Part shown: in pieces, positions 15,635 through 64,000 of the stretch
Position numbering within the stretch: position 1 is the first letter of the stretch
Layout: the number at the start of each line of letters is the position of its first letter
NCBI GenBank assembly: GCA_037138855.1
Contig: JBAXHO010000001.1
Span: forward strand, 6,105 to 70,104
Reading direction: 5' to 3'
Length of the DNA: 64,000 nt
DNA from: a bacterium
Lineage (GTDB): Bacteria; Patescibacteriota; Dojkabacteria; B142; OLB20
The notes under the pieces: model-generated
Databases searched by the model: none
What the model saw: the letters and a program-made list of their open reading frames with translations, nothing else
Told to the model about the DNA's origin: nothing
Position numbers and translations under genes: made by a program

Positions 15635-15716
15635 ATACTTCTGATATTTCCTATTGACACCATAACATCATCTCGATAAACTAATTAAAAGTAGTTAATT
15701 TCTAATCTTTATTACT

Positions 15717-16169: not shown

Positions 16170-16198
16170 TTTTTTAATTCATTTATTCAATTAAAAAT

Positions 16199-22100: not shown

Positions 22101-22240
22101 GTAAGGCTTCACCATGGGGTTATCTTGGAGTAGCGCTTTGTTGCTTGTTCTGGTTGATATTGCTCTTATTATTAGTAGGATTGTTACGTCGCAGAAAAGA
22201 TGAAAATGGTGCCAATGCCATGTTTACTAATCAGATTTAG
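16199..22240 (+). CDS. Giant (2013 aa) surface adhesin: N-terminal TM, 6 copies of a ~120-aa 4-Cys domain (CTSFxNMW...QCGG), two polymorphic-membrane-protein (Pmp GGAI/FxxN) beta-helix regions, a lectin/LamG-like domain, a Thr/Pro stalk, and a C-terminal TM with RRRK stop-transfer
   Basis: Repeated GGAIY / GGGIYN / FHAN / FEGN / FKLN motifs. Six CTSF(Q/V/T)NMW(I/L)E..C modules. C-terminal TPTITGTITITPSG...LGVALCCLFWLILLLLLVGLLRRRK. Confidence 0.8.
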   Translation: MEPQSAQSINHVAQIRKYFPIIIVTVVVLVAALAIVVVQRIRINNLPNTGTDNPIPTVPPTCDLVCADGHLDPNICSCVPDVTSIISTNTPILIMGNYLLKSMSVSLDQATGNNVITYKVQNDGTAEIAGNSFQNTYWINPVPEPSSINNIQPTQSLFQAKILTSQRLSAGTSGLGTISINNSSIPAGVYKLCMWYDSSKAVNEANENDNILCSQVTLAIPEAPACTSFTNMWINDCNSTGLLGTPQCATTSDKATIHYNSNAASMKFLDATSMPGILCSAIPDSTFTGQSQIYDANNPTINWTLTPGFGLKKICVRFENSAGSSKCGGTINYTGVTPVVTNTAIPVSPPQCTSFQNMWIEGCQSWNAADPTANASCITNNTNVQINLNSSNATTMRFYEKTANLDIACSALDPGAFPVVFQSYYPTHNITLSSTPGEKQVCVSLGNSAGSSQCGGKIWFQPSITPTISTIPSPTPTPQGAPECTSFVNMWLENCKTNQMTGPDCTINTNKLNINLAVPNITAGSKMSFYEKTAADDPKVLCNSIDPNKFSTPVDYATQVKDYQLQATTGQVKVCVRLVNSSGAASQCGGGINIVEPVYRILKVESGAVVTLSGLTLMGGRADIGAAIENFSFLEINNSIIANNIADVYGGGIYNEGYLSVRNSIFHANSIGNTNGAGGAIYSRNTNGGSYLQNSLTISKTMFEGNIAGTGGGGAIYSEDTPVMISRSSFKLNLAPSGGALYLTAIRSNDILNRIDNSTFASNTSMYGVINNTGSSKHVRLDLMFSTFVSDLPSSANNFTLYSGTNSEINFRNNILAAKGATQCNSIPNSLGGNVIIDSSCTVLPVSNNDIVGTQVNPLLSAEQTIPGNKTVFFSIDQSSPAFNNAINCTGTPIDQLEQTRPQGSACDSGAYEFPIPVTTTVTPTPATVAMTCSEGFTDDFGRFMIDSSRWKVNIADSLKTSVEINAQGGMLLIHIKKDNLNFDTTPNVQLQRWITGNFNVEVDMLQWQTPLPLDKKDTAVAAFQIVDNTGYVRKIWFEAATLSDGVTIDPNNYLLASDSYKFKILVPRYGSVRLKAIKTGEEISYFYTVLNRNDGSTTTGFIGKDTGVKGVNVMPIMKMSSPLANTFEFDNFTLNCDQAVPVCTSFQNMWIEGCQSWNAADPTANASCITNNANVQIHLNSPNASQMQFYEKTANLNIPCSALDPGTFPPEQYYSSTQNITLSSTPGEKQVCVRLTNSNGSSQCGGKIWFQPSITPTISTIPSPTPTPQGAPQCTSFVNMWLENCKTNQMTGPACTINTNKLNINLAVPNITAGSMMSFYERTAADDPKALCSSFDPNKFSTPVDYATQVKDYQLQATTGQVKVCVRLVNGSGAASQCGGGINIVEPVYRILQTAVNTNVTLSGITLQGGRADGVGGATMGGAIANYGIMNLNNSILTNNSAVSSGGAIYNEGMLRINASRIFANTTKGTGIGGGGAIYNNGTQLNISTSALNSNQSGSAGGGAILSRGSEVNILKSSFKDNITTGSGGALNFFNDHASILKNIIINSTFADNSVQSGEIYSNASYQYSLVTNISFSTFTSKSSGSNTLGTTLFATGKSEMFIKNNIIADNRTTQCNSPLLIDSSGGNVVLDRSCLQDPNNLNGDIIQNPKLQVEASNVNYYSVAYPIDLTSPAVDAVKDCMDLDITTIVEDQWGRVRPNGSLCDSGAYEFLMDVTPTISTIPSPTPTPVGAPACTSFVNMWIENCNDSQVPAGLCTVYKNHVTIHLNTTNASMMSFYERTAADDVNALCSSFDPTKFSPRVNYASQVDNFLLHATPGKVKVCVRFENSNGAASQCGGVIILGDAIPTVTPSVTPVQPSNTVMPSATAGVQNSNTPTPIRPSNTASVPTNTRPVVYYSATPRPTTNGIVTPTITGTITITPSGSITVTPTIKVTVTNTGTVTPTTTNGGGILGNFDFGTFFSDLLSGKASPWGYLGVALCCLFWLILLLLLVGLLRRRKDENGANAMFTNQI

Positions 22241-23689: not shown

Positions 23690-25129
23690 ATGCTGAAGGT
23701 TTACAACACACTTACCAAGCAAAAACAGGAGTTTATTCCCATCGAACCTAAAAAGGTAATGTTTTATCATTGTGGTCCGACAGTTTACTGGGTACAACAT
23801 ATCGGGAATCTTCGCGGTATGATCTGTGCTGATTTAATTCGTCGCTCTTTGATTTACATGGGTTATGAAGTTAAATTTGTTCGTAATTATACCGACGTTG
23901 GGCATCTGACTGGTGATAACATCGGAGATGCAGATACTGGTGAAGATCGCATGGAAAAAGCTGCGAAACGAGAAGGATTGGATCCAGACAAAATTGCCAA
24001 TAAATATATTGAACTTTTTAATATTGACTTGGAGAAGTTGAATATTCTGCAGCCAACTTATACACCAAGGGCGACAGAATTTATCCAGCAAATGATAGAT
24101 TTAGTGCAGGTTTTACTGGATAAAGGTTTTGCCTACGCCACACCTAAGGCAATTTATTTCGATGTTACTAAAAAAGCAGACTACAATAAATTAAATCGGC
24201 AAAATCTTGAGGAAAATCGTCAAGGTTCTGGCACCGGAGATGTAAGTGATCCAGCTAAAAAGCATCCCTTTGATTTTGCTTTATGGTTTTTCAAAACTGG
24301 AGTGCATAGTAATGCTTTGCAAACCTGGGAGTCACCGTTTAGTTCAACTGAAGTTGAAAAGGGACGAGGGTTTCCTGGCTGGCATATCGAGTGTAGTGCA
24401 ATGTCCAGCTCTCTCTTAGCCGATACGATTGATTTACATATGGGTGGTATTGAGCATATTGCGATTCATCACACCAATGAAATTGCTCAAAGCGAATCTG
24501 CCAGTGGCAAGGAATTTGTCCATTACTGGCTGCACAACGAGCATTTAACTGTAGATGATCAGAAGATGTCAAAGTCACTTGGTAATGTATATGCAGTTTC
24601 CGATATTGAAGCTAAGGGTTATGATCCACTTGCCTTACGTTATTTTTTCTTGCAAGCGCATTACCGTTCTAAGCAAAACTTCACCTGGGAAGCACTGGAT
24701 GCAGCCAAGCAAGCCTTTTCCAAACTGAAAAAAGAGGTTCTAAACTGGAAAAAAGCTGAAAGTAGCTCAAATACAGCCGAAAATGAGGTGGAAACCCTAA
24801 AAAATGAGTTTCTAAGGGCTCTGGAAGATGATTTTAATATTCCTCAAGCACTTGCAGTGGTTTGGAAAACCAATAATTTTAAAGCCCTGTCTGATCAGGA
24901 AAAATTAAATTTGGTTTTGGACTTTGATAAAGTATTAGGTTTGAAATTAAGTGAAGTGAAGGAAAATCAGGTAGAGATACCAGAAGCTGTGAAAAAATTA
25001 CTTGAGGAAAGACAACTTGCCAGGGTAAATAAAGACTGGGCAAAATCAGATCAAATTCGTGAACAGATTAAAAAGGAATTCGGGATGTTGGTTGAGGATA
25101 GTGGTGAAGGACAGAAGATTATCGGTTAA
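23690..25129 (+). CDS. cysS: Cysteinyl-tRNA synthetase
   Basis: Class I motifs HCGPTVY...HIGN (HIGH-like) and KMSKSLGN; 479 aa. Confidence 0.9.
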   Translation: MLKVYNTLTKQKQEFIPIEPKKVMFYHCGPTVYWVQHIGNLRGMICADLIRRSLIYMGYEVKFVRNYTDVGHLTGDNIGDADTGEDRMEKAAKREGLDPDKIANKYIELFNIDLEKLNILQPTYTPRATEFIQQMIDLVQVLLDKGFAYATPKAIYFDVTKKADYNKLNRQNLEENRQGSGTGDVSDPAKKHPFDFALWFFKTGVHSNALQTWESPFSSTEVEKGRGFPGWHIECSAMSSSLLADTIDLHMGGIEHIAIHHTNEIAQSESASGKEFVHYWLHNEHLTVDDQKMSKSLGNVYAVSDIEAKGYDPLALRYFFLQAHYRSKQNFTWEALDAAKQAFSKLKKEVLNWKKAESSSNTAENEVETLKNEFLRALEDDFNIPQALAVVWKTNNFKALSDQEKLNLVLDFDKVLGLKLSEVKENQVEIPEAVKKLLEERQLARVNKDWAKSDQIREQIKKEFGMLVEDSGEGQKIIG

Positions 25130-35625: not shown

Positions 35626-36113
35626 GGGGATGTATGGCTTCGACAGGGAATATTACTGGTTTTTGGCAAGCCGAGGTTTTTGGATACGGAGTCCTCGTAA
35701 AACAAACTGGTCCTCCGGTTATTTTGACCGGGCCGCATAATAAGCGTCAAAACCAAATTTCAAGATTTCGTTGCTGGCGTACAGGGCACAGTTGCAGCTA
35801 TCGCTGCTTCCTTTGCTCCTGCATTAGCTTTCAACGGAGTTGTTGCCTAAACTGGAGTTTCTCCAGGGATAAGCGCGAAAGCGCGGTAACCTTCTAGTGT
35901 TCTTCTCTCCTGATGGGAGGCACTAGGAGAAACATAGTCAGGATACAAGACTTAGCAATAGCATTCTGCTAAGTCCCACGCAAAATGTCTGCTGGCGGGA
36001 ATTGGTTTTAGCTTACTTCTATCAACTTCTCGTCTAAAAATCCAAGTAAGCTACGCTTGTACACTGAGAATCGGTAAGTTTTCTGGACGCGGGTTCGATC
36101 CCCGCCATCTCCA
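35626..36113 (+). ncRNA. ssrA: tmRNA (ssrA), one-piece, CCA not encoded; unusually long (~488 nt)
   Basis: 5' end GGGGAUGUAUGGCUUCGACAGGG (acceptor plus tRNA-like D region). PK1-like GCCGAGG...CCUCGUAAAAC. Ala-rich tag frame ...GTVAAIAASFAPALAFNGVVA followed by UAA. 3' end GGACGCGGGUUCGAUCCCCGCCAUCUCCA (T-arm plus acceptor). 5' GGGGAUG pairs with 3' CAUCUCC. Confidence 0.7.
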
Positions 36114-36127
36114 TAAATTTTGCCTGC

Positions 36128-48173: not shown

Positions 48174-50540
48174 TTAGTTTTCATTTCCCTCAGTAAACTG
48201 TGTTTCTCTGATATTCTGAATATTGGAATAGCTGAGTAAGTCCCCGAAGAGATACATGTATTTCGTACCATCATAATAAAATGCTTCTGCTGGAGCTAGG
48301 GCATTTTTTTCTCCGGTTAGATTACGTCCAAATCCTGAGATAATTGGTGCTGGATTAGTGAGGGTAGTTATGTTGGCATTGACGATTAAGCCACCTTTTA
48401 AGAATAAGCCATCATTTTGTGTATCGTTAGGAATATTAATATTAGCTGTAATTATAAAAGCCTGAACCTGGTCATAGTTTGCATTAGAAGTACCGTTTGT
48501 TTTATTTGTGCCTTCGTTAATTGTCGTGGTGTCGCTTACTACAAACAAACAGGCACTAGAAGAGTTGTCAGTAAAATCCGGGTTGATGATAAGTTGATTA
48601 ACAAGAAAAATTGTTTTAGAGTTGCAACTTGAATTGGATTCAAGCGTAAGCTCTGGAATTGATACGACAAAGGGATTAGCATTATTGTAACCACTACAAA
48701 TTGAACTTAGTAAGTCAGCCGAATTGACATTTAAGGTCTGATTATCCAGAGTAGAACAAAAAGTATTTTGAGAGGTGGCTTTGGCTTTGACTGTAGTATT
48801 AAAATATTCAATCCAGGAATTGGTATTACTATTGCGGGTTTTGTAGTTCAAATCTGTATAAGACTGATTGGTATAACTATTGACAGACATGGGTAAACTT
48901 TTGGAAGTGATAGTAGACAATCCTGTATAAGTAGATAAGAAAGCTGGTTGATCAGCAAGTGAAGGAATATTTGTATTTGTTGTGATTTTACTTGGCGCCT
49001 TCACTCCTAGTAAAAAGTCAAAACTATTACTAAATGCCTCACCATTCATGGTCATCAGCCAAGGGTCGCTCATTTGATTGAGAGAAACTGAGGTAGCATG
49101 AATATTACAGGCCTGGTCTTTGACACTCCAGTCGATCCGGAGTGAGCTATAGCTACTCCCTTCAGAAATCGAATAATTTTTTGAAGTGGTACTGGTGATC
49201 TGGGAAAAGAAGTCTGATTTAGGTGTGGTCTGATTATCTAAAGTGAAGGTATGAGATTGACCATCGCTGGAGATGGTGGAATTAGCTGTAACTCCATTAG
49301 CGGTTCCGGTAGTAGTTCCGGAAATAATGCTATTTACTTCATCCGAAATTGTGAAATTCACTGTGAAACCTGAAGTTGAGGCATTAGTAATCCCGAGATT
49401 AATTGCTGGATCTGTGAGATCTACTCGCCAGAGAGTGGGATTACTTTGATCCCAGGAATATGCCCCCTTTTTATCTGCAGCAACTGTATATACTGTGAGT
49501 GGATCTTGATCAAAGATATTAGTTCCATTATCGAGGAATCCTACTTTCCAGGTTAATTTCACTTGGGTTCCGGAGACATCCTGGTTGGCCATGAGCATTA
49601 CCCAAGATGTAAAGTTACTATTACCTTCCACTACGTTTCCATTTGTTGGGTCAATCGTGCAGATTGATTGGGCACCATTATTTTTATCGGTGCAGATAGC
49701 TCTATTTGGAATGATATCTGCAAGACTAGAAGTAAAAGTTTCTGGAGCGGTATAATATAAATATTGGTAACTGCCCGGTCCGTTTTTTTTGACACGGATA
49801 TAGGCACCACCTTCTGCTCTGGTATTCCAGCCCAGTGCAGGCTCTGGTGATATCCAGAAGCCCATGCGGTCTAAGTCAGTATTGCCATCAGCATCATTAT
49901 GATATGTGATGACAGTGAGTGGATTATTGGCAGGATTGGTTTGACTTGTACTCAGTATATTAGCGTTACTTCCGCTATTCGTTGCCAGTTTACCTGACCA
50001 GTTAGGAAAACCGGAACTACAAGTCGAAGTATTGGTTATTTCTGAAGTAGAATCGGGTACATTATCGATAGGCACCGGAGTATAAGTAGGTCCAGGAGGA
50101 CTGGTCGGCCCTGGAATAGTAGGCGTAGGGCTAGGACTAGGCCACATGCAATAGCCATAATTCATCACTGGATTACATACGCGTTTTGTAGGTAACGAAC
50201 AACATCGTGCAGTAAAAATTGCATTTACTTCAGGAACATTTCCGGCAATGAACATTTGGCAATAGGGGGATGGATCATGCTGAAAAGTATCCCCACAATA
50301 TCCTAGAGAGTCTAGGGGGCAACTAACATGATTCCAACTATGTGTGACTGAACAGTATGAATAATTCCATGGATCACAGTAGCCACCACCGAACCAATCA
50401 TCATGATTAGTTCGATAACCTGCCAAAGGGTCCCAACCATGTACTATTTGGGTTTGCATAGTGAATAAGCCCATTAGTATTATAAATGCAAAAATAAAAA
50501 GTTTTGTTTTTAATTTGTTTTTTACCAACAATTGTTGCAT
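48174..50540 (-). CDS. Large secreted/surface hypothetical protein with an N-terminal 12-Cys module and a Pro-rich linker
   Basis: Signal/TM peptide; ...GYCDPWNYSYCSV...SCPLDSLGYCGD...YCQMF...ARCCS...; PSPSPTPTIPGPTSPPGPTYTP; an S/T/N-rich 600-aa domain. Confidence 0.5.
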   Translation of the reverse strand: MQQLLVKNKLKTKLFIFAFIILMGLFTMQTQIVHGWDPLAGYRTNHDDWFGGGYCDPWNYSYCSVTHSWNHVSCPLDSLGYCGDTFQHDPSPYCQMFIAGNVPEVNAIFTARCCSLPTKRVCNPVMNYGYCMWPSPSPTPTIPGPTSPPGPTYTPVPIDNVPDSTSEITNTSTCSSGFPNWSGKLATNSGSNANILSTSQTNPANNPLTVITYHNDADGNTDLDRMGFWISPEPALGWNTRAEGGAYIRVKKNGPGSYQYLYYTAPETFTSSLADIIPNRAICTDKNNGAQSICTIDPTNGNVVEGNSNFTSWVMLMANQDVSGTQVKLTWKVGFLDNGTNIFDQDPLTVYTVAADKKGAYSWDQSNPTLWRVDLTDPAINLGITNASTSGFTVNFTISDEVNSIISGTTTGTANGVTANSTISSDGQSHTFTLDNQTTPKSDFFSQITSTTSKNYSISEGSSYSSLRIDWSVKDQACNIHATSVSLNQMSDPWLMTMNGEAFSNSFDFLLGVKAPSKITTNTNIPSLADQPAFLSTYTGLSTITSKSLPMSVNSYTNQSYTDLNYKTRNSNTNSWIEYFNTTVKAKATSQNTFCSTLDNQTLNVNSADLLSSICSGYNNANPFVVSIPELTLESNSSCNSKTIFLVNQLIINPDFTDNSSSACLFVVSDTTTINEGTNKTNGTSNANYDQVQAFIITANINIPNDTQNDGLFLKGGLIVNANITTLTNPAPIISGFGRNLTGEKNALAPAEAFYYDGTKYMYLFGDLLSYSNIQNIRETQFTEGNEN

Positions 50541-50546
50541 GTATTC

Positions 50547-51509
50547 TTATTCTAAAATCGAAAAATAATAGTTTTGAAAATTAAATAGCTGGTTCTGTTC
50601 GTCAGCACAGCGTAATTTTTTATCCAATTGAACCATTTCAGTTTTATTATATTCATTAAAAATACTAAAAGTGACTAAAGTGACTTGATTATTATCGAGA
50701 TATGTAGTTTGAAGCATGGCCACGATATTTTGAAAAAGTAATTTGCAATAAGAACAAGAAAAATCTATAAAAACTATAATATAATTAGTATTACTATTAC
50801 CTTGAGTAATACCACCGGTAATAGTAATTGGTTTTATTGGATAACCTTGTTGAAATTTCGCCTCGATTTCAGCCATTTGAGTTGTCAATTGTTGTTGCTG
50901 AGTTGCTTCATTAGAGAATTCACTTTGGCGGGAAATGATATCTTTATTAATTTCATTCTCAATTCCTTTCAGCTGAGAGGCAATCCAAAGGTCGTGGGTT
51001 TTGGTGATGTTGTTTTGGGTGAGATAATTCAGGATTGTTTTCAATTCTTTTGCTTGTGTCGACTCAGGTACTTCAAAGCCTTCTAGTTTGTCGCCATTTT
51101 TTTTGGCGATAAAGACAGAAGGAGAAAATCCGACCTTATTGTCCTGGTAGCTTTTTTCGGCAGCGGCGATTTGGCTGGTAAAATCCTGCGTTTGTAGACA
51201 TTTATCAAATTGAGTTTTATCGATTTGTGATTTATCCAGATAGAGATTGGTACATTGATCAGACAATGGGTTACTTGGCTGACAGCCATAATTATCTAAT
51301 ACCACTTGTTCAATAACGGGAATAGCAATTGTTGGAGCTGGCGTAACATTAATTAAGCTAGTAGAGTTATTATTCTCGGAATCCGGGTTAGTTTTGAATC
51401 TCATTACAATTATCACGAAAATAAGTCCAGCGAAAATCCCAATCAGGAAAGAAGCAAGTAATATAATTGGAAGTTTTTGCTTCATAATTAAAGTAAGAAA
51501 AATCAACAA
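50547..51509 (-). CDS. Membrane-anchored DsbA/thioredoxin-like thiol-disulfide oxidoreductase
   Basis: CxxC active site FIDFSCSYCKLLF in a thioredoxin-like context; N-terminal TM. Confidence 0.6.
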   Translation of the reverse strand: MLIFLTLIMKQKLPIILLASFLIGIFAGLIFVIIVMRFKTNPDSENNNSTSLINVTPAPTIAIPVIEQVVLDNYGCQPSNPLSDQCTNLYLDKSQIDKTQFDKCLQTQDFTSQIAAAEKSYQDNKVGFSPSVFIAKKNGDKLEGFEVPESTQAKELKTILNYLTQNNITKTHDLWIASQLKGIENEINKDIISRQSEFSNEATQQQQLTTQMAEIEAKFQQGYPIKPITITGGITQGNSNTNYIIVFIDFSCSYCKLLFQNIVAMLQTTYLDNNQVTLVTFSIFNEYNKTEMVQLDKKLRCADEQNQLFNFQNYYFSILE

Positions 51510-53149: not shown

Positions 53150-54208
53150 TTATGGTAATGCCACGGTTCCGCTTGGCCCAATTGCTTTATACTCATGAGG
53201 ACACATCCCTTGATCTGGTGTACAGGTAATGGCTACTGATTGTAGTTCGCGGTAAGTAATTGTGTTTTGCTTGGCATTAAATTGAAAATCACCAGCTTCG
53301 GGTAGGCTGATATCCTGGTTGGTAAAGGTATTGAGGAGAATAGTTTTCCCTGGTCCGATTTCATCACAGCCATAGCAGCTAGTTAGTCTGATATCAAGGT
53401 AATTGCCTGCGTAGAGTGTGTCGACAAAGAGACCGCCTTTGTATTTGCCAAGCGGAATTTGTTTATTATTAATACCGGTAACTGCAGTCGTGCCATCGAG
53501 TGGTCGGGAATAAAGTGGGGCACTAGCATCAGTCGCTAGGTTAAATTCAAATATTGTCGTTGTATCCGGATAATCATAAGTACCTGCTTTGCCAAGTGCC
53601 AGACCGAAATAGGCACGTTGGCTAGTTGCATCATAATAAAAGCCGGTGAAATAGATTTCCTGTTTGGTAGCAGCTTGATAAAGCACATGTTTTTCACTCA
53701 ATAAATTGAAATCAGCAGTGTAATTAGCATCATCCGGAATCGTTTGATTGGGTTCATGCATATAGGCAACTTCCTCAATGAAATTTCTGGAAGCATCACT
53801 ATTTTTAAAAAATAATACATATTGTCCCTGATATTTACCGAAATATACTGTTTGTTGGTGTAAGCTGGAGATAGGAGCTTGGTCGACTTTGCTCCAGTTT
53901 AATAATTTATCAGAAAATTGTGCAGTAGGTAGAGTGGTTGGAGTAATATTACTGTTGTTGATTGTAGGTGTCACAATCTCTGTGGGTGTGATAGTGCCAA
54001 AATTAAAAAGATAATCAGGGCCAAGGTTATTTAAAGGATCATGGTTTTTCTGATAATTCTTGAGAATTAATCCAATGCCAATTACTCCGCTACAGCAACA
54101 AAAAAGGATAATAACGATTGTGAGAATGATCAGGAGACTTTTTTTTGTGACTGATTTGCTTTTTAGCGCAGGTGAGGCTGGGACATTAGAATTTGGGGTA
54201 GGATTCAT
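53150..54208 (-). CDS. Membrane-anchored secreted protein, paralog family A (YFGKYQG... / CYGCDEIGPG motif)
   Basis: Shares architecture and motifs with 56961-57947 and 59955-61094. Confidence 0.5.
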   Translation of the reverse strand: MNPTPNSNVPASPALKSKSVTKKSLLIILTIVIILFCCCSGVIGIGLILKNYQKNHDPLNNLGPDYLFNFGTITPTEIVTPTINNSNITPTTLPTAQFSDKLLNWSKVDQAPISSLHQQTVYFGKYQGQYVLFFKNSDASRNFIEEVAYMHEPNQTIPDDANYTADFNLLSEKHVLYQAATKQEIYFTGFYYDATSQRAYFGLALGKAGTYDYPDTTTIFEFNLATDASAPLYSRPLDGTTAVTGINNKQIPLGKYKGGLFVDTLYAGNYLDIRLTSCYGCDEIGPGKTILLNTFTNQDISLPEAGDFQFNAKQNTITYRELQSVAITCTPDQGMCPHEYKAIGPSGTVALP

Positions 54209-54402
54209 AATATTTTTTGTAATAGCTGATAAATAAATAGTACAAGTTTTCTTAGCAACTGTAAATTAAAAATCTCTTTGAATTGTCTAGAGAATTCTTT
54301 TGTTTTGGATTTTAATTTTGAAGCTGACAAATTTGTATCACAATACATTGTTGTTTCTGTCTGACCAGTTTATAATAATTTTTTATCTAAATTATTATAA
54401 AT

Positions 54403-55398
54403 GTGATGCTAAAAAGATTTAATGCTTATTTGACATGGCTCGATGAGAATGAAGACCATCGCTCCGTTCGCCTTATCAATCAAATTTTTCCGGTAATAAC
54501 CTGTTTGATTCTCTTTATTGTATTCATGTTTTTTTCGATTATCTTCATTAAGTTTTTAATGAATCCTTTTGCCTCTGATCCGATTGAACTGAAATTGCAT
54601 TTTTCCAGCATGGCGGTAGGATTTTTTCTATATTTTGTCACTGCAGTTGATTATGCTTTGATTGTAGGACGGATGCAGGCTGCCAATCCCGGAATCAAAG
54701 CGCGTTTCGCAATGAATGTTTTTACCTGTATTGGTTGTTTTATAGGAGTTACAGTAGTTTTGTTTCTCTGGGGTTTTGCCAAAGAAGTTTCCTGGTTAAT
54801 TTTGCCACTCCTAATCTTTGCTGGGAGTGTAATGATAAAATTGGCATATGAAGGAAGAGGATATTTTGAAAAATCAAAAAGTGTTCCGTTTTTTATTAGA
54901 ATTCCACTTGCCCGCTTATTAAAAATATTTTTTTACTTCAGTAAACCCTTGACTTTCTGGATTCCAGAATTAGGCAGTCCTAATGTCCAGAAAATGCGGA
55001 TCCGTAACTTGGCAAAATGGGCATTTTTATTACCATTTATTATTGGTCTTGATGATTTTGTCGGTTATATGGGGGCGATGACGATTTATAATGTTTTTTC
55101 TTTACTATTTGGGATTTATTTAGCCGATATTGTGATTGATCTCTTGATTTTTATTTCTCCAAAGTTTACTAAGAAGGTAGTGCAGAGTGCATTACTATCA
55201 TTATTAGCTGCTTTTGCGTTTCTTTATTTAGCTTATAAATCATATTCTGAGTCATATCATCTTTTACATGAGAAATTTAATCTTGAGACAACTACAATTA
55301 TCCTAGGTGCACTTGGTTTTTTTACAATCGTGACAATTGTGGATTTGTTGACATTAATAGTAAGAAGAAAAGCAGGGCATAGTAAAAAATCTGAATAA
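54403..55398 (+). CDS. Polytopic integral membrane hypothetical protein
   Basis: ~8 predicted TM helices. Confidence 0.45.
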   Translation: MMLKRFNAYLTWLDENEDHRSVRLINQIFPVITCLILFIVFMFFSIIFIKFLMNPFASDPIELKLHFSSMAVGFFLYFVTAVDYALIVGRMQAANPGIKARFAMNVFTCIGCFIGVTVVLFLWGFAKEVSWLILPLLIFAGSVMIKLAYEGRGYFEKSKSVPFFIRIPLARLLKIFFYFSKPLTFWIPELGSPNVQKMRIRNLAKWAFLLPFIIGLDDFVGYMGAMTIYNVFSLLFGIYLADIVIDLLIFISPKFTKKVVQSALLSLLAAFAFLYLAYKSYSESYHLLHEKFNLETTTIILGALGFFTIVTIVDLLTLIVRRKAGHSKKSE

Positions 55399-55453
55399 TC
55401 GGTCACGTTTGTTTTAGATCATTCGTTATCGCAGGTCAATATTTTTTTGAGTA

Positions 55454-55886
55454 ATGTTTAAGCTTACCCGGAAGCAACAAAAACTGATAATAGCAGCTGT
55501 CACGGCAGTTGCAATCTGTATTTCTTGGATAATATCCGTGGTATTTGGCGTCACTATTCTGGTTCAGGCGCCTGAAAGCAAAGTGGCAATAATTCCAGAA
55601 GTTACTCAGCAGCTTAGAACGAATCTTGTTGCAACAAAAAGTTTATCTTGCGTATGACACAGTGCAGCCCCAGCGGGATCGTTATCAGCGTTTATTGTTA
55701 TATGTTTATTTACCGAAAAGTGACGGGACCACATTATTTATCAATCAATATTTGGTTGCTGAAGGATTTGCCAGGATTTATGACAAAGTAAAATCCCGTG
55801 AATTAAAAAATTTTCAACAGCTGGAAATGCAGGCGAAAAAGGAGCAAAAAGGTTTATGGCGGGCATGCATACTGAGTAATGAGTAG
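55454..55886 (+). pseudogene. Degenerate/split thermonuclease (SNase) paralog
   Basis: The second ORF (55626-55886) encodes only the SNase C-terminal half (...RYQRLLLYVYLPKSDGTTLFINQYLVAEGFARIYD...KGLW). The first ORF (55454-55657) has the TM anchor, in another frame; the catalytic N-half motifs are missing. Confidence 0.5.
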
Positions 55887-56023
55887 GGAGTATTGAGTAA
55901 TTAGTAATTAGGAGTGATGAGTGAGTTGTAGTGGGAGGGGGGATTTTTGAGAAATTAAGAAACATGATATAAATTTTTTGATATAGATGTTATCATTAAT
56001 ACATTATCTTTTATTTTTTCCTG

Positions 56024-56758
56024 ATGGATAAGAAAGTCATTATAATTATTGTCGTACTGTTGGCAGTTTGCTGCTGTGTTTCGACATTGGGAATTATCGG
56101 ATTTGCTATTGTAGCAAGTAATTCCGACACTAGTACTAGCGGTGGCAGTGTAACCGATACAGTTTTTCCTACTGTAGAGATGAATACAGTTACTTCACTT
56201 TTTGATACATTTGATAGTAATACTTCTAAATGGAATCTTGGTAAAGATGATAGCGAATTTGCTGTTTCTGATGAATATCTCAAAGATGGCAAAATGTTGA
56301 TTGACGTTACTGCTAAACAGGCTGTCGTAGTAAGTGATGAATTACCTTCTCAGGCAATTAAAAATTTCGATTTATCGATTGAGGGCAAACAGCTTTCTGG
56401 TGCTCAAGGTGGTGATTATGCCGTGATCTTCCGCAGATTAAATGGCGATAATTACTATCTTTTTGGAGTCAATGAGGCTTATCAGGAATATACTTTGGCA
56501 GTTAAAAAAGATGGTGAGTGGGTAGATCTGATCGAATGGAAAAAATCATCAGTTATCAATCAAAATGCTGTCAATGTAATCAAAGTATCAGCAGTGGAAA
56601 GTCAATTGACTTTATATATCAATAATCAGCAGGTAAGTACTATTAGTGATTCTTCCATTCTCGAGGGTGGAGCAGTAGGTGTTGCCGGCGAATTGTATGA
56701 TGCCACTGACACAGCATTATTTCAATTTGATAATTTGTTGCTGACTGTGAAAGATTAG
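56024..56758 (+). CDS. Membrane-anchored concanavalin-A-like lectin/glucanase-fold (LamG/DUF1080-like) protein
   Basis: N-terminal TM helix, then a ~200-aa beta-sandwich-like region similar to the lectin-like insert of the giant adhesin. Confidence 0.4.
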   Translation: MDKKVIIIIVVLLAVCCCVSTLGIIGFAIVASNSDTSTSGGSVTDTVFPTVEMNTVTSLFDTFDSNTSKWNLGKDDSEFAVSDEYLKDGKMLIDVTAKQAVVVSDELPSQAIKNFDLSIEGKQLSGAQGGDYAVIFRRLNGDNYYLFGVNEAYQEYTLAVKKDGEWVDLIEWKKSSVINQNAVNVIKVSAVESQLTLYINNQQVSTISDSSILEGGAVGVAGELYDATDTALFQFDNLLLTVKD

Positions 56759-56877
56759 TAGGATACAAACTGTTTTTATCTTGCGAAGCGAAACAAGCGT
56801 AAGGGTAGCGAGCAAATAGGAAGTAGCAAGTATCATGTAGCATGTAGCAAGTAGAAAAGAGAAATTACGATAAAAAA

Positions 56878-56910
56878 ATGAGCTGCGGGAGCAGCTCTTT
56901 TTTTGTGACT
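56878..56910 (+). terminator. Intrinsic terminator GAGCTGCGGGAGCAGCTC plus T7
   Basis: Read directly; near-identical copies recur at 57965-57995 and 58245-58270. Confidence 0.7.
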
Positions 56911-56960
56911 ATTAACTGGCAATTCTAGTTTGAGGAGATATTAATTTATCATATATTATA

Positions 56961-57947
56961 ATGATGCAAGTTGATCAGCCGATTATGGCAAGTAGTAAAC
57001 AAGTGGAACAAAAGTTGGGGCAAAATGTTGTGAAGGCTACACTTTTGTTGGTGACATTATTGGTTTCCGTAGGAATTGTCGGAGCAGCAGTAGCCTTACA
57101 TTTTCGTAATAAAAATCAGCCAGTCAGTAAACCGGAAATTATTGTGTTAACTAGCCCAACTCCTGCATTAGTGGCTGGAAATTTACAGCCTACAGTCAAG
57201 GTGGCAGAGGCGACTCTCGCAGCGCCGACTACAGCAGCAACAGTTACAGCAGTGACCAAAGATGTGCTTTATCTCGGAAAATATCAGGAGAAACAGGTGC
57301 TGTTTTATGAGCCATATGCCAAAAAAGGTGAAGAACAGCCCGGTCTGAGCTTTGGGGTTGTGTCTGAAAATCAGGGATTTGCTGCTGCCAGAATTGATTT
57401 TGCACAAATTACAGATGCCAAAGCCTTTATGCAATTTACCGATCAAAAACAGTATTCTTATGTCGATTTCTTTATGTTTGATCAACATAACCTTTTCATT
57501 TCAGTTTTGAACACTGCTGATTTTTTGAATGAAAATAAACCAATTAATAATGATATTTACCGTTTTGACTTAACAACTGGCAAGTCGACGCTAGTTCGTT
57601 CCAAATTGATGACTAGCGGTCCAGTCACTTTTGATTCAGCGACAACTGATCAGTATTTAGTCCTGGAGCAATTACCTTGCTGGTATTGTGGTCCGGAGCA
57701 ACCGACTGACATCTTGGTTTATAATATCCAAACCCAAAAAGAAATCAATCTCAGCATGGCTGCCAATATAGTGTTGGACCAAACTAAAGTGAAATATCAA
57801 CTTTATCTAGAAACCACTGAACGCCCAAGTTGTAATACCGATGAATGTAATAATACTTTCTGTGCCCAGCCAGATATCTTCTGTACCTTCATGCAAGAAA
57901 TCGTCTGGAAAGTCGGAGGCGAGGTCAAGGAGCAGAGCTTACCGTGA
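56961..57947 (+). CDS. Membrane-anchored secreted protein, paralog family A
   Basis: LYLGKYQEKQVLFY..., LPCWYCGPEQPTDILVYNIQTQKEINL. Confidence 0.5.
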   Translation: MMQVDQPIMASSKQVEQKLGQNVVKATLLLVTLLVSVGIVGAAVALHFRNKNQPVSKPEIIVLTSPTPALVAGNLQPTVKVAEATLAAPTTAATVTAVTKDVLYLGKYQEKQVLFYEPYAKKGEEQPGLSFGVVSENQGFAAARIDFAQITDAKAFMQFTDQKQYSYVDFFMFDQHNLFISVLNTADFLNENKPINNDIYRFDLTTGKSTLVRSKLMTSGPVTFDSATTDQYLVLEQLPCWYCGPEQPTDILVYNIQTQKEINLSMAANIVLDQTKVKYQLYLETTERPSCNTDECNNTFCAQPDIFCTFMQEIVWKVGGEVKEQSLP

Positions 57948-58035
57948 GGGGATTGTTTTCTGGTAAAAAAAAGAGCTGCCGGAGCAGCTCTTTTTTTGAT
58001 AATCATTTAAATATAAACAAAACAGGAATTCTCGG

Positions 58036-58080
58036 CATGATCCGTACGGACAGGTTTCAAACCTGTCCGTACGGATCATG
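58036..58080. repeat. Perfect 22-bp-arm palindrome CATGATCCGTACGGACAGGTTT c AAACCTGTCCGTACGGATCATG
   Basis: Read directly; a second near-identical copy (1 mismatch) is at 58723-58762. Confidence 0.95.
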
Positions 58081-58277
58081 GTGTCGAAACCAACGAACGT
58101 CCCAGCTGCAATACTGATGAATGTAATAATACTTTCTGTGCCCAGCCAGATATCTTCTGTACCTTCATGCAAGAAATCGTCTGGAAAGTCGGAGGCGAGG
58201 TCAAGGAGCAGAGCTTACCGTGAGGGGATTGTTTTCTGGGAAAAAAAGAGCTGCCGGAGCAGCTCTTTTGGATATTA

Positions 58278-58661
58278 TTAAGGCGCAGATAAATTATCTT
58301 GAGTAGGTTTTGGTTTTGCACGTTCTGTTGCTGCTGTATTTGCTTGTCTTGTTTCTACTGCTGGTCTAAACATTTCTCCCCCATACTGTCTAGTTGTTTC
58401 AAAGCATGGACTACCTGGTTGACAATTTGCTGGTAATGGGATTCCGATTGGAGTTGGAGTACTGTTTAGATTACCATTACTTCCACTACCACCACCACCA
58501 TCGCAGCCATTTAATATTGTGCCAGCTACGCCAGTAAATAAGGTAAAAGCTAGTACTCCTCTTGATACTATGTGATAAATTTTAACTTCTATTGGAAGTT
58601 GATCAAAATTAGGGATACCTAAAAATTTCGACATGAATATATATCTAATATATAAAACCAA
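58278..58661 (-). CDS. Small membrane/secreted hypothetical protein with a Gly-rich region, inside the palindrome-bounded segment
   Basis: Probable start MSKFLGIPNF...; TM helix VLAFTLFTGVAGTIL; CDGGGGSGSNG. Confidence 0.35.
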   Translation of the reverse strand: MVLYIRYIFMSKFLGIPNFDQLPIEVKIYHIVSRGVLAFTLFTGVAGTILNGCDGGGGSGSNGNLNSTPTPIGIPLPANCQPGSPCFETTRQYGGEMFRPAVETRQANTAATERAKPKPTQDNLSAP

Positions 58662-58722
58662 GCTAATATTTTAACATATTGAAGATATATTTTCAACCTT
58701 TTCAAAAATTATTCTAACATCC

Positions 58723-58762
58723 CTCCGTACGGACAGGTTTGAAACCTGTCCATACGGAGGAT
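58723..58762. repeat. Second copy of the palindrome (CTCCGTACGGACAGGTTT g AAACCTGTCCATACGGAG)
   Basis: Read directly. Confidence 0.9.
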
Positions 58763-58832
58763 CGATGCCAACTCAGCAATCACGACCTATTGCCATCCCT
58801 CCCCCAAACCACTACAATACTTTCATACCTGA

Positions 58833-59786
58833 TTGCCAATGGTTTTGTCGAAAGCTCTGAAAATTATTATTATCGTCCTTGTCGCAGTAGCAGTGATGTT
58901 GCTTACTGTTTTTTTATTGTTTGTCAGCGGGGTGACGCATGAGGTGCAGTTAATTATTTTTCCTCCGACAGCGACACCGCTGCCTACTATAACTCCGATT
59001 CCGACGCCTACGCCGACACCGACTTTGACGCCTACGCCGACACCGGATTTGAATAATTTTGCGAAAGATTATGATTATCCGCCGAAAGAGCAAAATAAAG
59101 GGACTGTGCGTATCCCGGTTTTGACCTATCATCATGTCGCTCCGATCCCGGATCAGCAAAATATGCAGGCTTATTACGTCACGCCAGTGATGTTTGAAAA
59201 GCAGTTGCAGTACCTGAAAGAAAAAAATTATCGTACTTTGACCACCAGAGAGTTTCTCGAGCAAGTGAAAAGCGGTCAAAATCCCAGTCAGAAGTCGATA
59301 GTGCTCACTTTTGATGATGGTGCGAAAAATAATTATGATAATGCTTTTCCCTTGTTGAAAAAATATGGTTTTGTCGGTGTGTTTTACATCCCGACGAATA
59401 AAACAGGTATAACCCAGACACAGCTCAAGGAAATGGCTGATGCTGGTATGGAAATTGGCTCACATTCCAAAACTCATCCGGATCTCAGTAAAATTTCGGA
59501 TGACGCGAAATTAACCGATGAAATTATTAATAGTCGGGGGATGCTGCAGAGCTGGACCGGACAGGATATTTATAGTATTGCCTATCCCGGTTGTACTGCA
59601 AATTCTCTGAACATCAGTTATGTGACCAAAGCCGGTTATCAGGTGGGTTTTTCCTGTGGAAAAGTGATTGATCATAAATATTCGCAGCGTTATGTCCTTT
59701 CCCGGATCCATGTTTACAGTAATTTGGATAATTTTAAGAAAATCCTCTCTGGTTTGGGAGAATTTACGACGGAGTATGGGGATTGA
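58833..59786 (+). CDS. Polysaccharide deacetylase (CE4/NodB family), membrane-anchored with a TP-rich linker
   Basis: IVLTFDDGAKNNYDNAFPLL (TFDDG), GMEIGSHSKTHPDL (H-x4-H), PTPTPTPTLTPTPTP linker. Confidence 0.85.
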   Translation: MPMVLSKALKIIIIVLVAVAVMLLTVFLLFVSGVTHEVQLIIFPPTATPLPTITPIPTPTPTPTLTPTPTPDLNNFAKDYDYPPKEQNKGTVRIPVLTYHHVAPIPDQQNMQAYYVTPVMFEKQLQYLKEKNYRTLTTREFLEQVKSGQNPSQKSIVLTFDDGAKNNYDNAFPLLKKYGFVGVFYIPTNKTGITQTQLKEMADAGMEIGSHSKTHPDLSKISDDAKLTDEIINSRGMLQSWTGQDIYSIAYPGCTANSLNISYVTKAGYQVGFSCGKVIDHKYSQRYVLSRIHVYSNLDNFKKILSGLGEFTTEYGD

Positions 59787-59954
59787 GAGACGGTAACCGG
59801 TGATCGGTGAGCGGAAGAAGGATGAGTATCAAGTAGCAAGTATCAAGTAGTAGTAAGAAAAACGTTAGTGAACTATTACTAATGTTAAGGTACTATCAAG
59901 TAATTTTTTATGCTATATTATTATGCGCAAAGTTAAATTTAATAAATTGCTAAA

Positions 59955-61094
59955 ATGATTGAACAAATCTCTGAAAAACCAAGTTTAGAAGCGGTACAGC
60001 CTCTTAATCAAGTTTCAGCTAATTCAGCAGGAGTTACAGAATTATCTCAGCAAAAAGGTAAAAGTAATCAAAAACCTTTATTAATATTGGCTGTGACAAG
60101 TTTGATGCTGTTGATATTTTTATTAATTTGCGGTTTTGTTTGGGCGCTGGTGCGTGCAAGACAAAATAACACTGCCACACAATCCTGTAATTACCAGGGG
60201 ATTAATTATGATAATGGCATTGGTTTTCCGTCTAGTGATGGTTGTAATAGCTGTTCCTGTGCTGCCGGTCAAGTAGTATGTACAGAAATGGCTTGTTTCA
60301 ATCCAACTGAGACACCGGCAGTGACAAAAATGCTTAGTAATCAGCCAACTGTCACTTATGACCAGACAGAACAGAAAAATACTTTGTATCTCGCAGAATT
60401 GAATGGGCAAAAAGTAATTTATACCCGGGTGCAAGGTAACTGGATTTCCTGCGGCGATGCTGCCAAGCCGGCAATTTACAATAGTCTTTCCGCAAAAAAT
60501 GGCTTTCAGTTTGCTGGTGATCCCAGCTGTACTGAGTTTGCTAGTTTGAGTCAGGCACAAAGAATTCTGGAATTTAGCGGGACAGAGCAGTATGATTTTT
60601 ATGATTATTATCAGGTAGATAATTTCTTGTATGTTTCTGTGCTTAAATCAGTCAATCTGGCTAGTTTGGAAGATCATACTTTTAATGAGGTTTATCAAGT
60701 AGATTTAACTACTTTGCAAAAGCAATTATTGTGGACCCGAGAAATTGGTGATGCCAAATATGCCAGCAAAGGGCCAATTCAGTTCCTGCCAGTGACGACA
60801 AATAAATATGTGGTGATGAATGTATTATCTTGCTGGAGTTGTGGTCCGGAAACACCAGATGATGTAATTATTTTGAATATTGCTACCAAAAAAGAATCGC
60901 TGGCAGAACGTGCTACTAATATTATTCTCGGTAGTGGCCAATATACATTCAAGCAGTATATTGATCATGCATATTTTGACATTAATGATAGCAGTAGTTT
61001 TGCGACTTATTGTCACTCAGATCAATACTGGTGTGGCGATGGTGGTAGCTACTGGAAACTAGATAATCTTATTTCGACAAGACCGTTGCCATAA
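59955..61094 (+). CDS. Membrane-anchored secreted protein, paralog family A
   Basis: LYLAELNGQKVIY..., LSCWSCGPETPDDVIILNIATKKESL. Confidence 0.5.
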   Translation: MIEQISEKPSLEAVQPLNQVSANSAGVTELSQQKGKSNQKPLLILAVTSLMLLIFLLICGFVWALVRARQNNTATQSCNYQGINYDNGIGFPSSDGCNSCSCAAGQVVCTEMACFNPTETPAVTKMLSNQPTVTYDQTEQKNTLYLAELNGQKVIYTRVQGNWISCGDAAKPAIYNSLSAKNGFQFAGDPSCTEFASLSQAQRILEFSGTEQYDFYDYYQVDNFLYVSVLKSVNLASLEDHTFNEVYQVDLTTLQKQLLWTREIGDAKYASKGPIQFLPVTTNKYVVMNVLSCWSCGPETPDDVIILNIATKKESLAERATNIILGSGQYTFKQYIDHAYFDINDSSSFATYCHSDQYWCGDGGSYWKLDNLISTRPLP

Positions 61095-61840
61095 TGTTCA
61101 GTGTCGTTATTCCTACTTTTAATGAAGCCAAGTTTTTAGGTGATTTATTGCTGGCAATTAAGGCTCAGACGATTCAGCCGGTGGAAATTATTGTGGCGGA
61201 TAATCATTCCAGTGATCAAACAAGAATGATTGCCAAACAGTTTGGTTGTAAAATAGTCAGCGGTGGCAGTCCTGCTGTCGGTCGTAATCATGGCGCCAGA
61301 GCGGTAACGCAAAAAATTATCTTTTTTTTGGATGCTGATGTAGAGTTGGCAAGTCCGGATTTTTTTGCTCGAGCCTTAGCTGAAATGAATAAAGAATCGG
61401 GATCGATTGGCAGCTGTCGGATTAAAAATTCTACAATTGCGGGAAATCGTTCGATGCGATTAGGAGAACTTATCACTGATGTTCGTCCGCTTTTAAATCA
61501 AGCGACTATTGCACTGACTGGAAAATTATTTTCCGATATGGGAGCAGTTATGATTTGTACCAAAGCGCTTTGGGAAAAGATTGCTGGTTTCGATGAAAAG
61601 CTTTATACGATTGAAGATACAGATTTTTTTCGGAGAGCGGTAGCAGCAGGTGGCAAGTACTTTTTTGTGAAGGTTACTGTTCTGATTTCACCACGGCGTT
61701 TTATCAAGCGTTCCCGTTTGAAATTGGTAAAAATGTCAGTGCTGTTAATTGCAATATTGACATTAAGTTTTTTTGGAATTAAAAAATATGCCGGGTTGCA
61801 TGAGGAGTATCAAAAAGAAAAAGGCAAGTTGGGTGGTTAG
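61094..61840 (+). CDS. Family 2 glycosyltransferase (DPM1-like) with a C-terminal TM
   Basis: VVIPTFNEAKFL, ...IIVADNHSSDQT, FLDADV (DxD). Confidence 0.85.
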   Translation: MFSVVIPTFNEAKFLGDLLLAIKAQTIQPVEIIVADNHSSDQTRMIAKQFGCKIVSGGSPAVGRNHGARAVTQKIIFFLDADVELASPDFFARALAEMNKESGSIGSCRIKNSTIAGNRSMRLGELITDVRPLLNQATIALTGKLFSDMGAVMICTKALWEKIAGFDEKLYTIEDTDFFRRAVAAGGKYFFVKVTVLISPRRFIKRSRLKLVKMSVLLIAILTLSFFGIKKYAGLHEEYQKEKGKLGG

Positions 61841-62537: not shown

Positions 62538-62921
62538 TTATTTCACTACCTGAAAAGGGCTGACACTGATGTCGATAGTTTTACTGGTGTTGAAATAATA
62601 TTCATTAACTGCTGCTGAAATTAAAATATTACGAAAGTTCGCTTGAGTGGGATGGTTAGAGATAGTAGCTTGACAGTTCCCAGCTGTTAGAGTGACTGTA
62701 AGATTCCCGGTATAATTCTGATTAATTTTAAGTTTCTGTAGGCTTTCTTCAAAGCAGGTATCAGCGACTACAATCGCCTCGGTATTATTTAATTTTGCCT
62801 TAGAGGCTTTTGCTAAATCCACACTGTTAAATACCACAATCATTCCACCGATCAGGAGAACCCCGGAAAGGGCAATTACTGTTATTAAGGAAGCACTAGC
62901 AGGTAATTTTTGCTGTTTCAT
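62538..62921 (-). CDS. Putative minor pilin / pilus-associated protein
   Basis: N-terminal hydrophobic segment LITVIALSGVLLIGGMIVVF; last gene of a pseudopilin operon. Confidence 0.4.
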   Translation of the reverse strand: MKQQKLPASASLITVIALSGVLLIGGMIVVFNSVDLAKASKAKLNNTEAIVVADTCFEESLQKLKINQNYTGNLTVTLTAGNCQATISNHPTQANFRNILISAAVNEYYFNTSKTIDISVSPFQVVK

Positions 62922-63419
62922 TTAGTCTAAACTTAATACTAGATTAATTTGGGTTTTACGATCGCTGCGGGTCAGATGGGCGAGCTCTAATTCTACAGCA
63001 ATTGCTCTGGGAATGCCTTGTAAATCATTGATTTTAGTAAGATGAAATTTGGTAACATTCATCGTATCCGGGGTAATCGGGTTAATCTGACCGTTGGCAG
63101 AAAATATTAAACGGTTATTTTCCAGGTAATATGTTTTAAATATGGTAGAAGTAGTGAGATAAATCCGTCCCTGATCAGAATCGAAAGCACTTTGTGCAGT
63201 ATCGATACCAGAAGTATTGCGAAAGCTATCTTCTAAATGTTCGGTGATAAAAATCTTTTGTTTTGCCAGAGTATTGTCGGTATTAACCTTTAAATTACTT
63301 TCTTGAATCGAAAGGACAAATTGGATAATGGCAGTAAAAATAATTGCAAACAGTGCCAAATAAATAATAGTTTCTACTAATGTAATCGCTTTTAATTTTT
63401 TTTTGAAAATTTTCTTCAT
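62922..63419 (-). CDS. Type IV pilin-like / pseudopilin (prepilin N-terminal cleavage-methylation domain)
   Basis: KAITLVETIIYLALFAIIF matches the class III signal (G/A)(F/I)TLxE plus a hydrophobic helix. Confidence 0.6.
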   Translation of the reverse strand: MKKIFKKKLKAITLVETIIYLALFAIIFTAIIQFVLSIQESNLKVNTDNTLAKQKIFITEHLEDSFRNTSGIDTAQSAFDSDQGRIYLTTSTIFKTYYLENNRLIFSANGQINPITPDTMNVTKFHLTKINDLQGIPRAIAVELELAHLTRSDRKTQINLVLSLD

Positions 63420-64000
63420 TGATAATCCAGACTAATGTCATAAAATATTGGTGTGCCGTAACGATTGGATGAAAGGAAAGCTTTATATTGGACATAGCGC
63501 TTATCCTGGACACTAGTTGGTAGTGTACTGCCTGCTTTATCGGTAAAAAATGTATTACCAGTATTATCTGGTCCGACAAAGATGGCACCACTTAAAGTAG
63601 CAGTATCGCTAGCCCGGATTTGTAATTTGAGATCAGTATTGGCTGGGATTAGGCTATTCCAGCTGATGGTGTATAGTTTGGGATCAGCTCGCTTTGTATC
63701 AAAGATAGATGAAGTATAAGTACCATTTTCTACATAACCATAACCATTGCCAGCTCCACCACCAGGACCACCGCGAATAATTTTGAATTCAGCATTGGGA
63801 TCACCGGTAATCAAATAAGCAAAAGCATTACCCTCAGCATCATAGCTAGCATCTAGATCGTAAATACCATTATCAATTTGAAGTCCACCACAACGGGTTG
63901 GATGACGTTCATCGGAAATATTATAAACCTGATATTCTTCACCACCGGTACCGGCCAAAATGGCGACATTACCACTGGCAACTACAGCAATACCTTGCAC
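63416..64000 (-). CDS. C-terminal part of a larger pilus-operon protein (continues beyond the window end)
   Basis: The open frame reaches position 64000 without a start codon; Gly-rich GPGGGAGNGYGY; 4-nt overlap with the pseudopilin gene. Confidence 0.4.
   Translation of the reverse strand: MQGIAVVASGNVAILAGTGGEEYQVYNISDERHPTRCGGLQIDNGIYDLDASYDAEGNAFAYLITGDPNAEFKIIRGGPGGGAGNGYGYVENGTYTSSIFDTKRADPKLYTISWNSLIPANTDLKLQIRASDTATLSGAIFVGPDNTGNTFFTDKAGSTLPTSVQDKRYVQYKAFLSSNRYGTPIFYDISLDYQ

Follow-up and report, generated by a model that had tools for sequence, protein, structure and literature searches.

A divergent family of membrane-anchored proteins with a predicted propeller-like ectodomain encoded by three genes in a Dojkabacteria genome

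Bacteria of the candidate phyla radiation (CPR, Patescibacteria) account for a large share of bacterial diversity, and their surface proteome is mostly unannotated. Here we describe three paralogous genes, P1, P2 and P3, which lie in a 64,000-nucleotide stretch of a Dojkabacteria genome (GenBank assembly GCA_037138855.1, contig JBAXHO010000001.1, positions 6,105 to 70,104 of the forward strand; hereafter the window). The described proteins closest to their predicted fold are the beta-propellers of the PD40/TolB type and of S9-peptidase N-terminal domains (E. coli TolB, 1crz; Deinococcus S9 peptidase, 5yzm; DPP-4, 2onc). A functional analogue may be PilX2 of Saccharibacteria, a pilin-like protein that is described as bearing a 7-bladed propeller with RCC1 repeats and that is needed for efficient host binding (PMC11623550); all cultivated CPR bacteria have been described as obligate episymbionts (PMC11623550). 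As in PilX2 and Pseudomonas PilY1, the window proteins would hold a propeller-type domain on the CPR cell surface by an N-terminal hydrophobic segment, and their genes adjoin a type IV pilus cluster. In contrast to both, the family has a smaller domain and gave no RCC1 or PilY1 Pfam hit. A pilin identity was rejected, since the prepilin motif (class III, G followed by [FM]TLxE) occurred in 0 of 149 members and P1-P3 gave no N_methyl Pfam hit.

The window translations contained all three open reading frames (ORFs) at the positions and on the strands given by an initial annotation of the sequence, which had described them as paralogs of an uncharacterised anchored family. To avoid circularity, homology was tested with a hidden Markov model (HMM) built from 46 relatives in other metagenomes and zero window sequences. 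This model scored P1 at E = 5.5e-46, P3 at 1.3e-45 and P2 at 6.7e-40, spanning HMM positions ~8-305 of 305, and none of the remaining window ORFs exceeded 12 bits. Pairwise BLASTP gave E = 3e-28 for P2 against P3 (26% identity over 242 residues) and was marginal for P1 against P2 (E = 7e-4) and against P3 (E = 3e-3), so the membership of P1 is settled by the HMM. P2 and P3 were mutual best hits at about 89 bits, and the best hits of P1 were proteins of other genomes (P0078, P0009, P0008 and P0075; 81-94 bits), with which it has CY(G/A)CDEIGPG in common. Two subfamilies are thus present in the genome, and one of the two has been duplicated.

Alignment of the three proteins brought into register (V/L)Y(F/L)(G/A) as the entry motif, C[WY]xC, a further pair of cysteines and a C-terminal Leu-Pro, of which the last two had been missed by the initial annotation. 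The motifs as originally worded held in part. LY(L/F)(G/A)KYQ was found in P1 (VYFGKYQ) and P2 (LYLGKYQ) but not in P3 (LYLAELN), and C[WY]xCGPE in P2 and P3 but not in P1 (CYGCDEIGPG), the pattern common to all being C[WY]xC...P....[LY]N..T..[ED]. P1, P2 and P3 all showed the four-cysteine pattern (C[YW]xC plus C-x5-7-C) and the LP end.

When 1.84 billion cluster representatives were searched exhaustively with a HMMER profile, 152 proteins reached E <= 1e-3 and 62 of them E <= 1e-10, these being representatives at 50% clustering from other metagenomes. With 152 such representatives, and with P1 closest to the members of other genomes, the idea of a lineage-specific family was not upheld. P2 and a three-sequence profile, run as word-indexed queries against 5.8 billion proteins, recovered the window's own proteins only. 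Neither Pfam nor NCBIfam had a model matching the core domain, whether in the window proteins or in the 49 aligned members; the family profile, run against all PDB sequences, gave nothing beyond noise from the transmembrane region, and no description of the family was found in a literature search. Members were rare, mostly one contig apiece, and the sole name in any source was 'hypothetical protein'; the NCBI entries of the window proteins, on an 88.9-kb contig, read 'MAG: hypothetical protein WCJ58_00305/00340 [bacterium]'. Judged by these comparisons, P1-P3 belong to a real, previously unnamed and very divergent family, in which sequence identity is ~20-25%.

Nearly all members were 270-350 residues long with the domain at the C-terminal end. 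Among 150 listed members, 125 had an N-terminal hydrophobic helix, 142 a CxxC motif, and 129 Leu-Pro at the C-terminus or no more than one residue away from it. The near-invariant columns of a 149-sequence alignment (P0001 numbering) were Y103 (96%), G219 (95%), C239 and C242 (95%), N254 (96%), C300 (99%), C307 (100%), G319 (94%), L326 (98%) and P327 (100%), with several aromatics too. Just downstream of N254, T257 and E260 were conserved at 72-73%. No catalysis-type set of His, Asp, Ser or Lys was conserved in this alignment.

The taxonomic setting was examined through cysteinyl-tRNA synthetase (CysRS). All GTDB genomes matched by the window CysRS (23690-25126) were Patescibacteria/CPR, with identities of 53-63% and with Dojkabacteria and Microgenomates-type metagenome-assembled genomes (MAGs) at the top, and the CysRS of one external carrier locus (L088) was 73-78% identical to Dojkabacteria-type MAGs. 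These matches show that the family occurs in CPR bacteria. G+C content was low in all carrier loci (29-42%). Each of the eight external carrier loci (L002-L007, L088 and L089) had a single family copy, and none of the neighbouring genes checked as extra copies in L088 and L089 was one. Many GTDB records titled 'uncultured Gammaproteobacteria bacterium' (L031, L035, L047-L049 and other CAY*/CAZ* records) had a CysRS 54-58% identical to that of the window, which is within the range of Patescibacteria-titled records; such titles are apparently placeholders or wrong taxonomic labels.

The N-terminal transmembrane helix claimed for all three proteins was confirmed by hydrophobic 19-mers scoring 2.7-3.1 on the Kyte-Doolittle scale. 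Across the family, the 12 residues before the helix had a net charge of +2.1, against +0.7 after it, the median N-terminal tail was 19 residues, and the median stalk was 39 residues with 34% Thr/Pro/Ser. The charge bias, tail and stalk fit with an uncleaved signal anchor, which would place the domain outside the cell (N-in). Anchoring by an LPXTG sortase was ruled out, because the proteins stop at ...LP-COOH with no hydrophobic segment or charged tail and the anchor is N-terminal.

The number of ectodomain cysteines was even in 122 of the 125 anchored members and exactly four in 89 (P1 has 4, P2 has 6 and P3 has 12). All four conserved cysteines were kept in 123 members. Seven members had both CxxC cysteines substituted and kept the second pair, 12 kept CxxC with no residue at either second-pair column, and no member had lost one single cysteine of the first pair. 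Because the pairs are lost independently as units and the counts are even, a four-cysteine zinc site is less likely than two local disulfides, and the pattern speaks for the pairs C239-C242 and C300-C307 rather than for a Cys4 metal site or crossed pairing. A thioredoxin-fold oxidoreductase was ruled out by the all-beta prediction, the absence of thioredoxin-family Pfam hits and the seven members that lack both CxxC cysteines.

AlphaFold2 models of P2 reached a predicted local distance difference test (pLDDT) score of 74-77 overall and 85-97 in the core, and the predicted domain was all-beta. Its structural neighbours included TolB and other envelope propellers, and some of the fold hits were enzymes (oligogalacturonate lyase, strictosidine synthase, SMP30 and amine dehydrogenases). 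One further compared protein, itself without known function, shared 6% sequence identity, which is no sequence-level relationship and permits no functional transfer. None of the 49 members gave a Pfam hit to PD40, WD40, Kelch, NHL or YWTD propeller repeats, and alignment of the putative blades to each other with hhalign gave probabilities <=6.6%, with no internal repeat found.

P3 carries a further six-cysteine module between its anchor and the family domain, with the spacing C-x18-C-x2-C-x-C-x6-C-x4-C. It matched Pfam Pacifastin_I marginally (E = 1e-6, 28.8 bits against a cutoff of 27.9) and VWC below threshold (E = 3e-3, 18.2 bits against 27.6). The likeness to VWC/pacifastin modules lies in the six cysteines with the C-x2-C-x-C-x6-C-x4-C core; the difference is that the P3 module is part of a membrane-anchored protein of a bacterium. 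The match implies no function as a protease inhibitor. In described pacifastins the loop between the first and second cysteines is shorter than the 18 residues seen here. Only 2 of 173 family members, P3 and P0063, had the module fused. In locus L089, the gene next to the P1-subfamily member P0078 (1291-2076, plus strand) encodes a membrane-anchored 261-residue protein with identical six-cysteine spacing. The association of module and family may therefore be a recurring one, though weakly so.

The reading that we favour, at a little better than even confidence, is that of a non-enzymatic module which serves for binding or as a scaffold on the surface of the CPR cell. P1-P3 would be type II (N-in/C-out) signal-anchored surface proteins, each with a short cytoplasmic tail, a single transmembrane helix, a flexible Thr/Pro/Ser-rich stalk and an all-beta propeller-like ectodomain of ~230 residues. 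Two local disulfides, one in the C[YW]xC pair and one in the C-x5-7-C pair, would brace the ectodomain, and the invariant C-terminal ...T-x-x-L-P strand would close it. Held off the membrane, the domain would bind or scaffold a ligand, for which an envelope glycan, a partner protein and a host surface are the candidates. P1 represents one of the genome's two subfamilies and the sister pair P2/P3 the other, and P3 would have gained the VWC/pacifastin-like cysteine-knot module and be co-expressed with the neighbouring GT2 gene and probably with the CE4 gene (Table 1). Nothing in this is mechanistically surprising.

Table 1. Positions in the window of P1-P3, their predicted parts and the neighbouring features.
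Feature	Position	Strand	Description
P1	53150..54208	-	352 aa; family member, subfamily other than P2/P3
P1 transmembrane helix	~residues 25-49, nt 54062-54136	-	followed by T/P-rich stalk
P1 core domain	residues 118-352, nt 53153-53857	-	CYGC at residues 278-281; C-terminus ...ALP
P2	56961..57947	+	328 aa; family member; CWYC motif; C-terminus ...SLP
P2 transmembrane helix	~residues 26-47, nt 57036-57101	+	followed by A/T/P/V-rich stalk
P2 core domain	residues 99-328, nt 57255-57944	+	
P3	59955..61094	+	379 aa; sister of P2; CWSC motif; C-terminus ...PLP
P3 transmembrane helix	~residues 42-64, nt 60078-60146	+	
P3 six-cysteine module	residues 78-114, nt 60186..60296	+	between transmembrane anchor and family domain
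P3 core domain	residues 141-379, nt 60375-61091	+	
Anchored protein upstream of P2	56024..56758	+	244 aa; Pfam 3keto-disac_hyd/DUF1080 E=7e-4, 20.1 bits against cutoff 26.8
Terminator-like hairpin	56880-56897	bidirectional	after the 56024-56758 gene; terminator scan
Terminator-like hairpin AAAAAAAGAGCTGCCGGAGCAGCTCTTTTTTT	57966..57997	+	immediately after P2; inverted repeat I6
Near-identical copy of terminator-like hairpin	58244-58269		terminator scan
CE4 polysaccharide deacetylase	58833..59786	+	Polysacc_deac_1 E=9e-27; TFDD and HSKTH motifs; transmembrane helix, PT-rich linker, catalytic domain
GT2 glycosyltransferase	61094..61840	+	248 aa; C-terminal hydrophobic segment; Glycos_transf_2 E=2e-22
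DsbA-like thioredoxin-fold protein	50547..51509	-	membrane-anchored; Thioredoxin_4 E=3.4e-9, DSBA E=2.7e-5; CSYC; 1.6 kb away

The identities given earlier to the CE4 and GT2 genes, which lie between or beside the family genes, were confirmed. The CE4 protein showed sub-threshold similarity to PgaB/IcaB/PgdA, and its gene ends 168 nucleotides upstream of P3. The stop codon of P3 and the start codon of the GT2 gene do overlap by 1 nucleotide (TAATG), and from this overlap the GT2 gene is translationally coupled to P3; CE4, P3 and GT2 possibly form an operon. The neighbour upstream of P2 is anchored, as had been proposed, but its designation as lectin-like has only the sub-threshold match of Table 1 behind it. 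It gave no PDB sequence match and possibly has, on weak similarity, a concanavalin/DUF1080-like fold.

The proposal that the family forms the core of a locus for polysaccharide remodelling was not supported, because P1 stands by itself on the minus strand with plus-strand genes on either side, terminator-like hairpins flank P2, unrelated genes are interspersed, and the neighbours do not recur. P2 appears to be its own transcription unit, bracketed by these hairpins. The three hairpins have nearly the same stem, GAGCTGC-N4-GCAGCTC, as though one terminator module recurred across the region. The interspersed genes encode a GNAT protein, a polytopic membrane protein, an SNase fragment and a small anchored protein. 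The fragment, an 86-residue ORF (55626-55886, plus strand), matched only positions 40-106 of 107 of the SNase profile (E = 4.5e-13) and is probably a truncated or decayed nuclease gene. In none of the eight external loci did a CE4 or GT2 gene stand beside the family gene, and the neighbours all differed. A YkuD L,D-transpeptidase gene lay ~3 kb from one homolog, which also had PMT-type glycosyltransferases in its vicinity. Only the putative CE4-P3-GT2 unit of this genome thus ties the family physically to glycan enzymes, and in the loci compared the surrounding cell-wall enzyme genes do not form a conserved set of partners.

Much of this evidence bears on what the ectodomain does. It might act in envelope biogenesis as a TolB- or Lpo-like scaffold, which docks or regulates wall-zone enzymes (deacetylase, L,D-transpeptidase, glycan synthases) and binds nothing external. 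The presence of TolB and other envelope propellers among the structural neighbours, the coupling of P3 to GT2 with CE4 ahead of it, and the homolog close to YkuD and PMT-type genes would all suit such a scaffold. However, wall enzymes accompanied the family in only 2 of 9 loci, with different enzymes each time, P1 and P2 are apparently separate transcription units, and divergence to the level seen here would be unusual for a housekeeping protein, so that we consider the scaffold unlikely. An equally unlikely account, and a narrower form of the favoured one, makes the proteins host-contact adhesins or receptors of an episymbiotic CPR cell, whose paralogs and fast divergence would reflect host specificity. 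Stalked surface display, strong divergence, several divergent paralogs, the adjoining type IV pilus genes and the precedent of propeller-bearing PilX2 (PMC11623550) speak for it, but the family has no pilin signal and no sequence homology to PilX2/RCC1 or PilY1. We give still less credence to the idea of Patescibacteria-restricted stalked receptors, whose small, disulfide-locked propeller-like head would recognise host-cell or envelope glycans and whose paralogs would give several specificities per cell, with P1 set apart from P2/P3 and P3 distinguished by its cysteine-knot module and its coupled GT2/CE4.

Binding rather than catalysis is what the favoured reading predicts. If the domain were an enzyme or redox protein, C[YW]xC would be a redox dithiol or metal pair, and N254, T257 and E260 might make up an active site borne by the propeller, in the manner of propeller lyases, lactonases and dehydrogenases. 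The conservation of the CxxC pair and its behaviour as an independent unit, the conservation of those three residues, and the enzymes among the fold hits are consistent with this; yet the loss of both CxxC cysteines in seven members would be intolerable for a catalytic dithiol, His, Asp and Lys residues are not conserved, and the domain has no thioredoxin fold, all of which makes an enzyme highly improbable. Much the same low probability attaches to the dedicated polysaccharide-remodelling or host-glycan-binding cluster of the initial annotation, where CE4, GT2 and the lectin-like protein would work jointly with the family. The genes do lie within 8 kb, with the P3-GT2 overlap and CE4 upstream, and CE4, the lectin-like protein and P1-P3 are all built of a transmembrane helix, a linker and an ectodomain. 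Nevertheless, mixed strands, terminator-like hairpins between genes and unrelated interspersed genes weigh against joint action, the arrangement was absent from 8 of 8 external loci, and the lectin assignment fell below threshold. Host-glycan binding by the family itself is possible.

The analysis delimits a coherent family, with a profile, hallmark residues (four Cys, an Asn and the C-terminal Leu-Pro) and a predicted topology and fold class, which is enough for a new family entry and for designing ectodomain constructs with which to study binding and structure. The view of the adjacent CE4 and GT2 genes as functional partners of the family is corrected as well. If the head does bind hosts or glycans, an unrecognised, non-pilus component would be added to CPR host attachment, distinct from type IV pili; otherwise it would be an ordinary domain of unknown function.

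Downstream of P2 the sequence showed signs of rearrangement. The last 42 codons of P2 and the terminator-like hairpin are duplicated ~276 nucleotides downstream (57810-57994 and 58086-58269; 185 nucleotides, ~95% identical). The copies are identical from 57841 on, and the 7 differences cluster at the 5' edge, 5 of them being synonymous changes at third positions; this points to a scar of recombination or integration and not to an assembly artefact. The segment 58041-58220, which scored E = 5e-17 with the family profile, was rejected as a fourth paralog, as it belongs to this duplicate of the P2 3' end and terminator and is no gene. A 45-nucleotide perfect palindrome, CATGATCCGTACGGACAGGTTT-C-AAACCTGTCCGTACGGATCATG, was found at 58036-58080 and 58722-58760 and nowhere else in the window (chance expectation 0.01). 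Its copies flank ~725 bp in which the second copy of the P2 tail and a small gene on the minus strand lie, and in this region Rfam gave no more than sub-threshold hairpin matches. The palindrome may be an element like a repetitive extragenic palindrome (REP) or a miniature inverted-repeat transposable element (MITE), or may mark the ends of a small cassette. The gene between the palindromes (58278-58661, minus strand) is an ORF of 118-127 residues with an N-terminal hydrophobic segment that has a lipobox-like LNGC at its end and a Gly/Ser-rich stretch after it, and gave no Pfam hit.

The DsbA-like protein of Table 1 is a candidate oxidase for the disulfides of exported cysteine-containing proteins encoded here. 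Directly downstream of its gene, and probably co-transcribed with it, lies a gene (48174-50540, minus strand) for a 788-residue exported protein with a very cysteine-rich N-terminal region and no Pfam family. A type IV pilus/type II secretion system (T2SS)-like cluster directly follows the P3 region, at 62538-64000 (minus strand) and beyond the window (15575-20984 of locus L001). It contains small pseudopilin-like ORFs (N_methyl in 62922-63419), T2SSF, T2SSE and a 641-residue protein with a faint hit to the LVIVD beta-propeller repeat, which may be a pilus-associated propeller adhesin.

Elsewhere in the window, a giant ORF of 2013 residues (16199-22240, plus strand) had no Pfam match at E <= 1e-5. 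An 845-residue fusion of AMP-binding, phosphopantetheine-binding and acyltransferase domains (6563-9100, minus strand), resembling an Aas-like acyl-ACP synthetase/acyltransferase, adjoins a family III CoA-transferase gene at 9115-10047. The transfer-messenger RNA (tmRNA) gene at 35626-36116 (plus strand; Rfam RF00023, 112.7 bits) is 491 nucleotides long against a 374-position model, and so has sizeable insertions.

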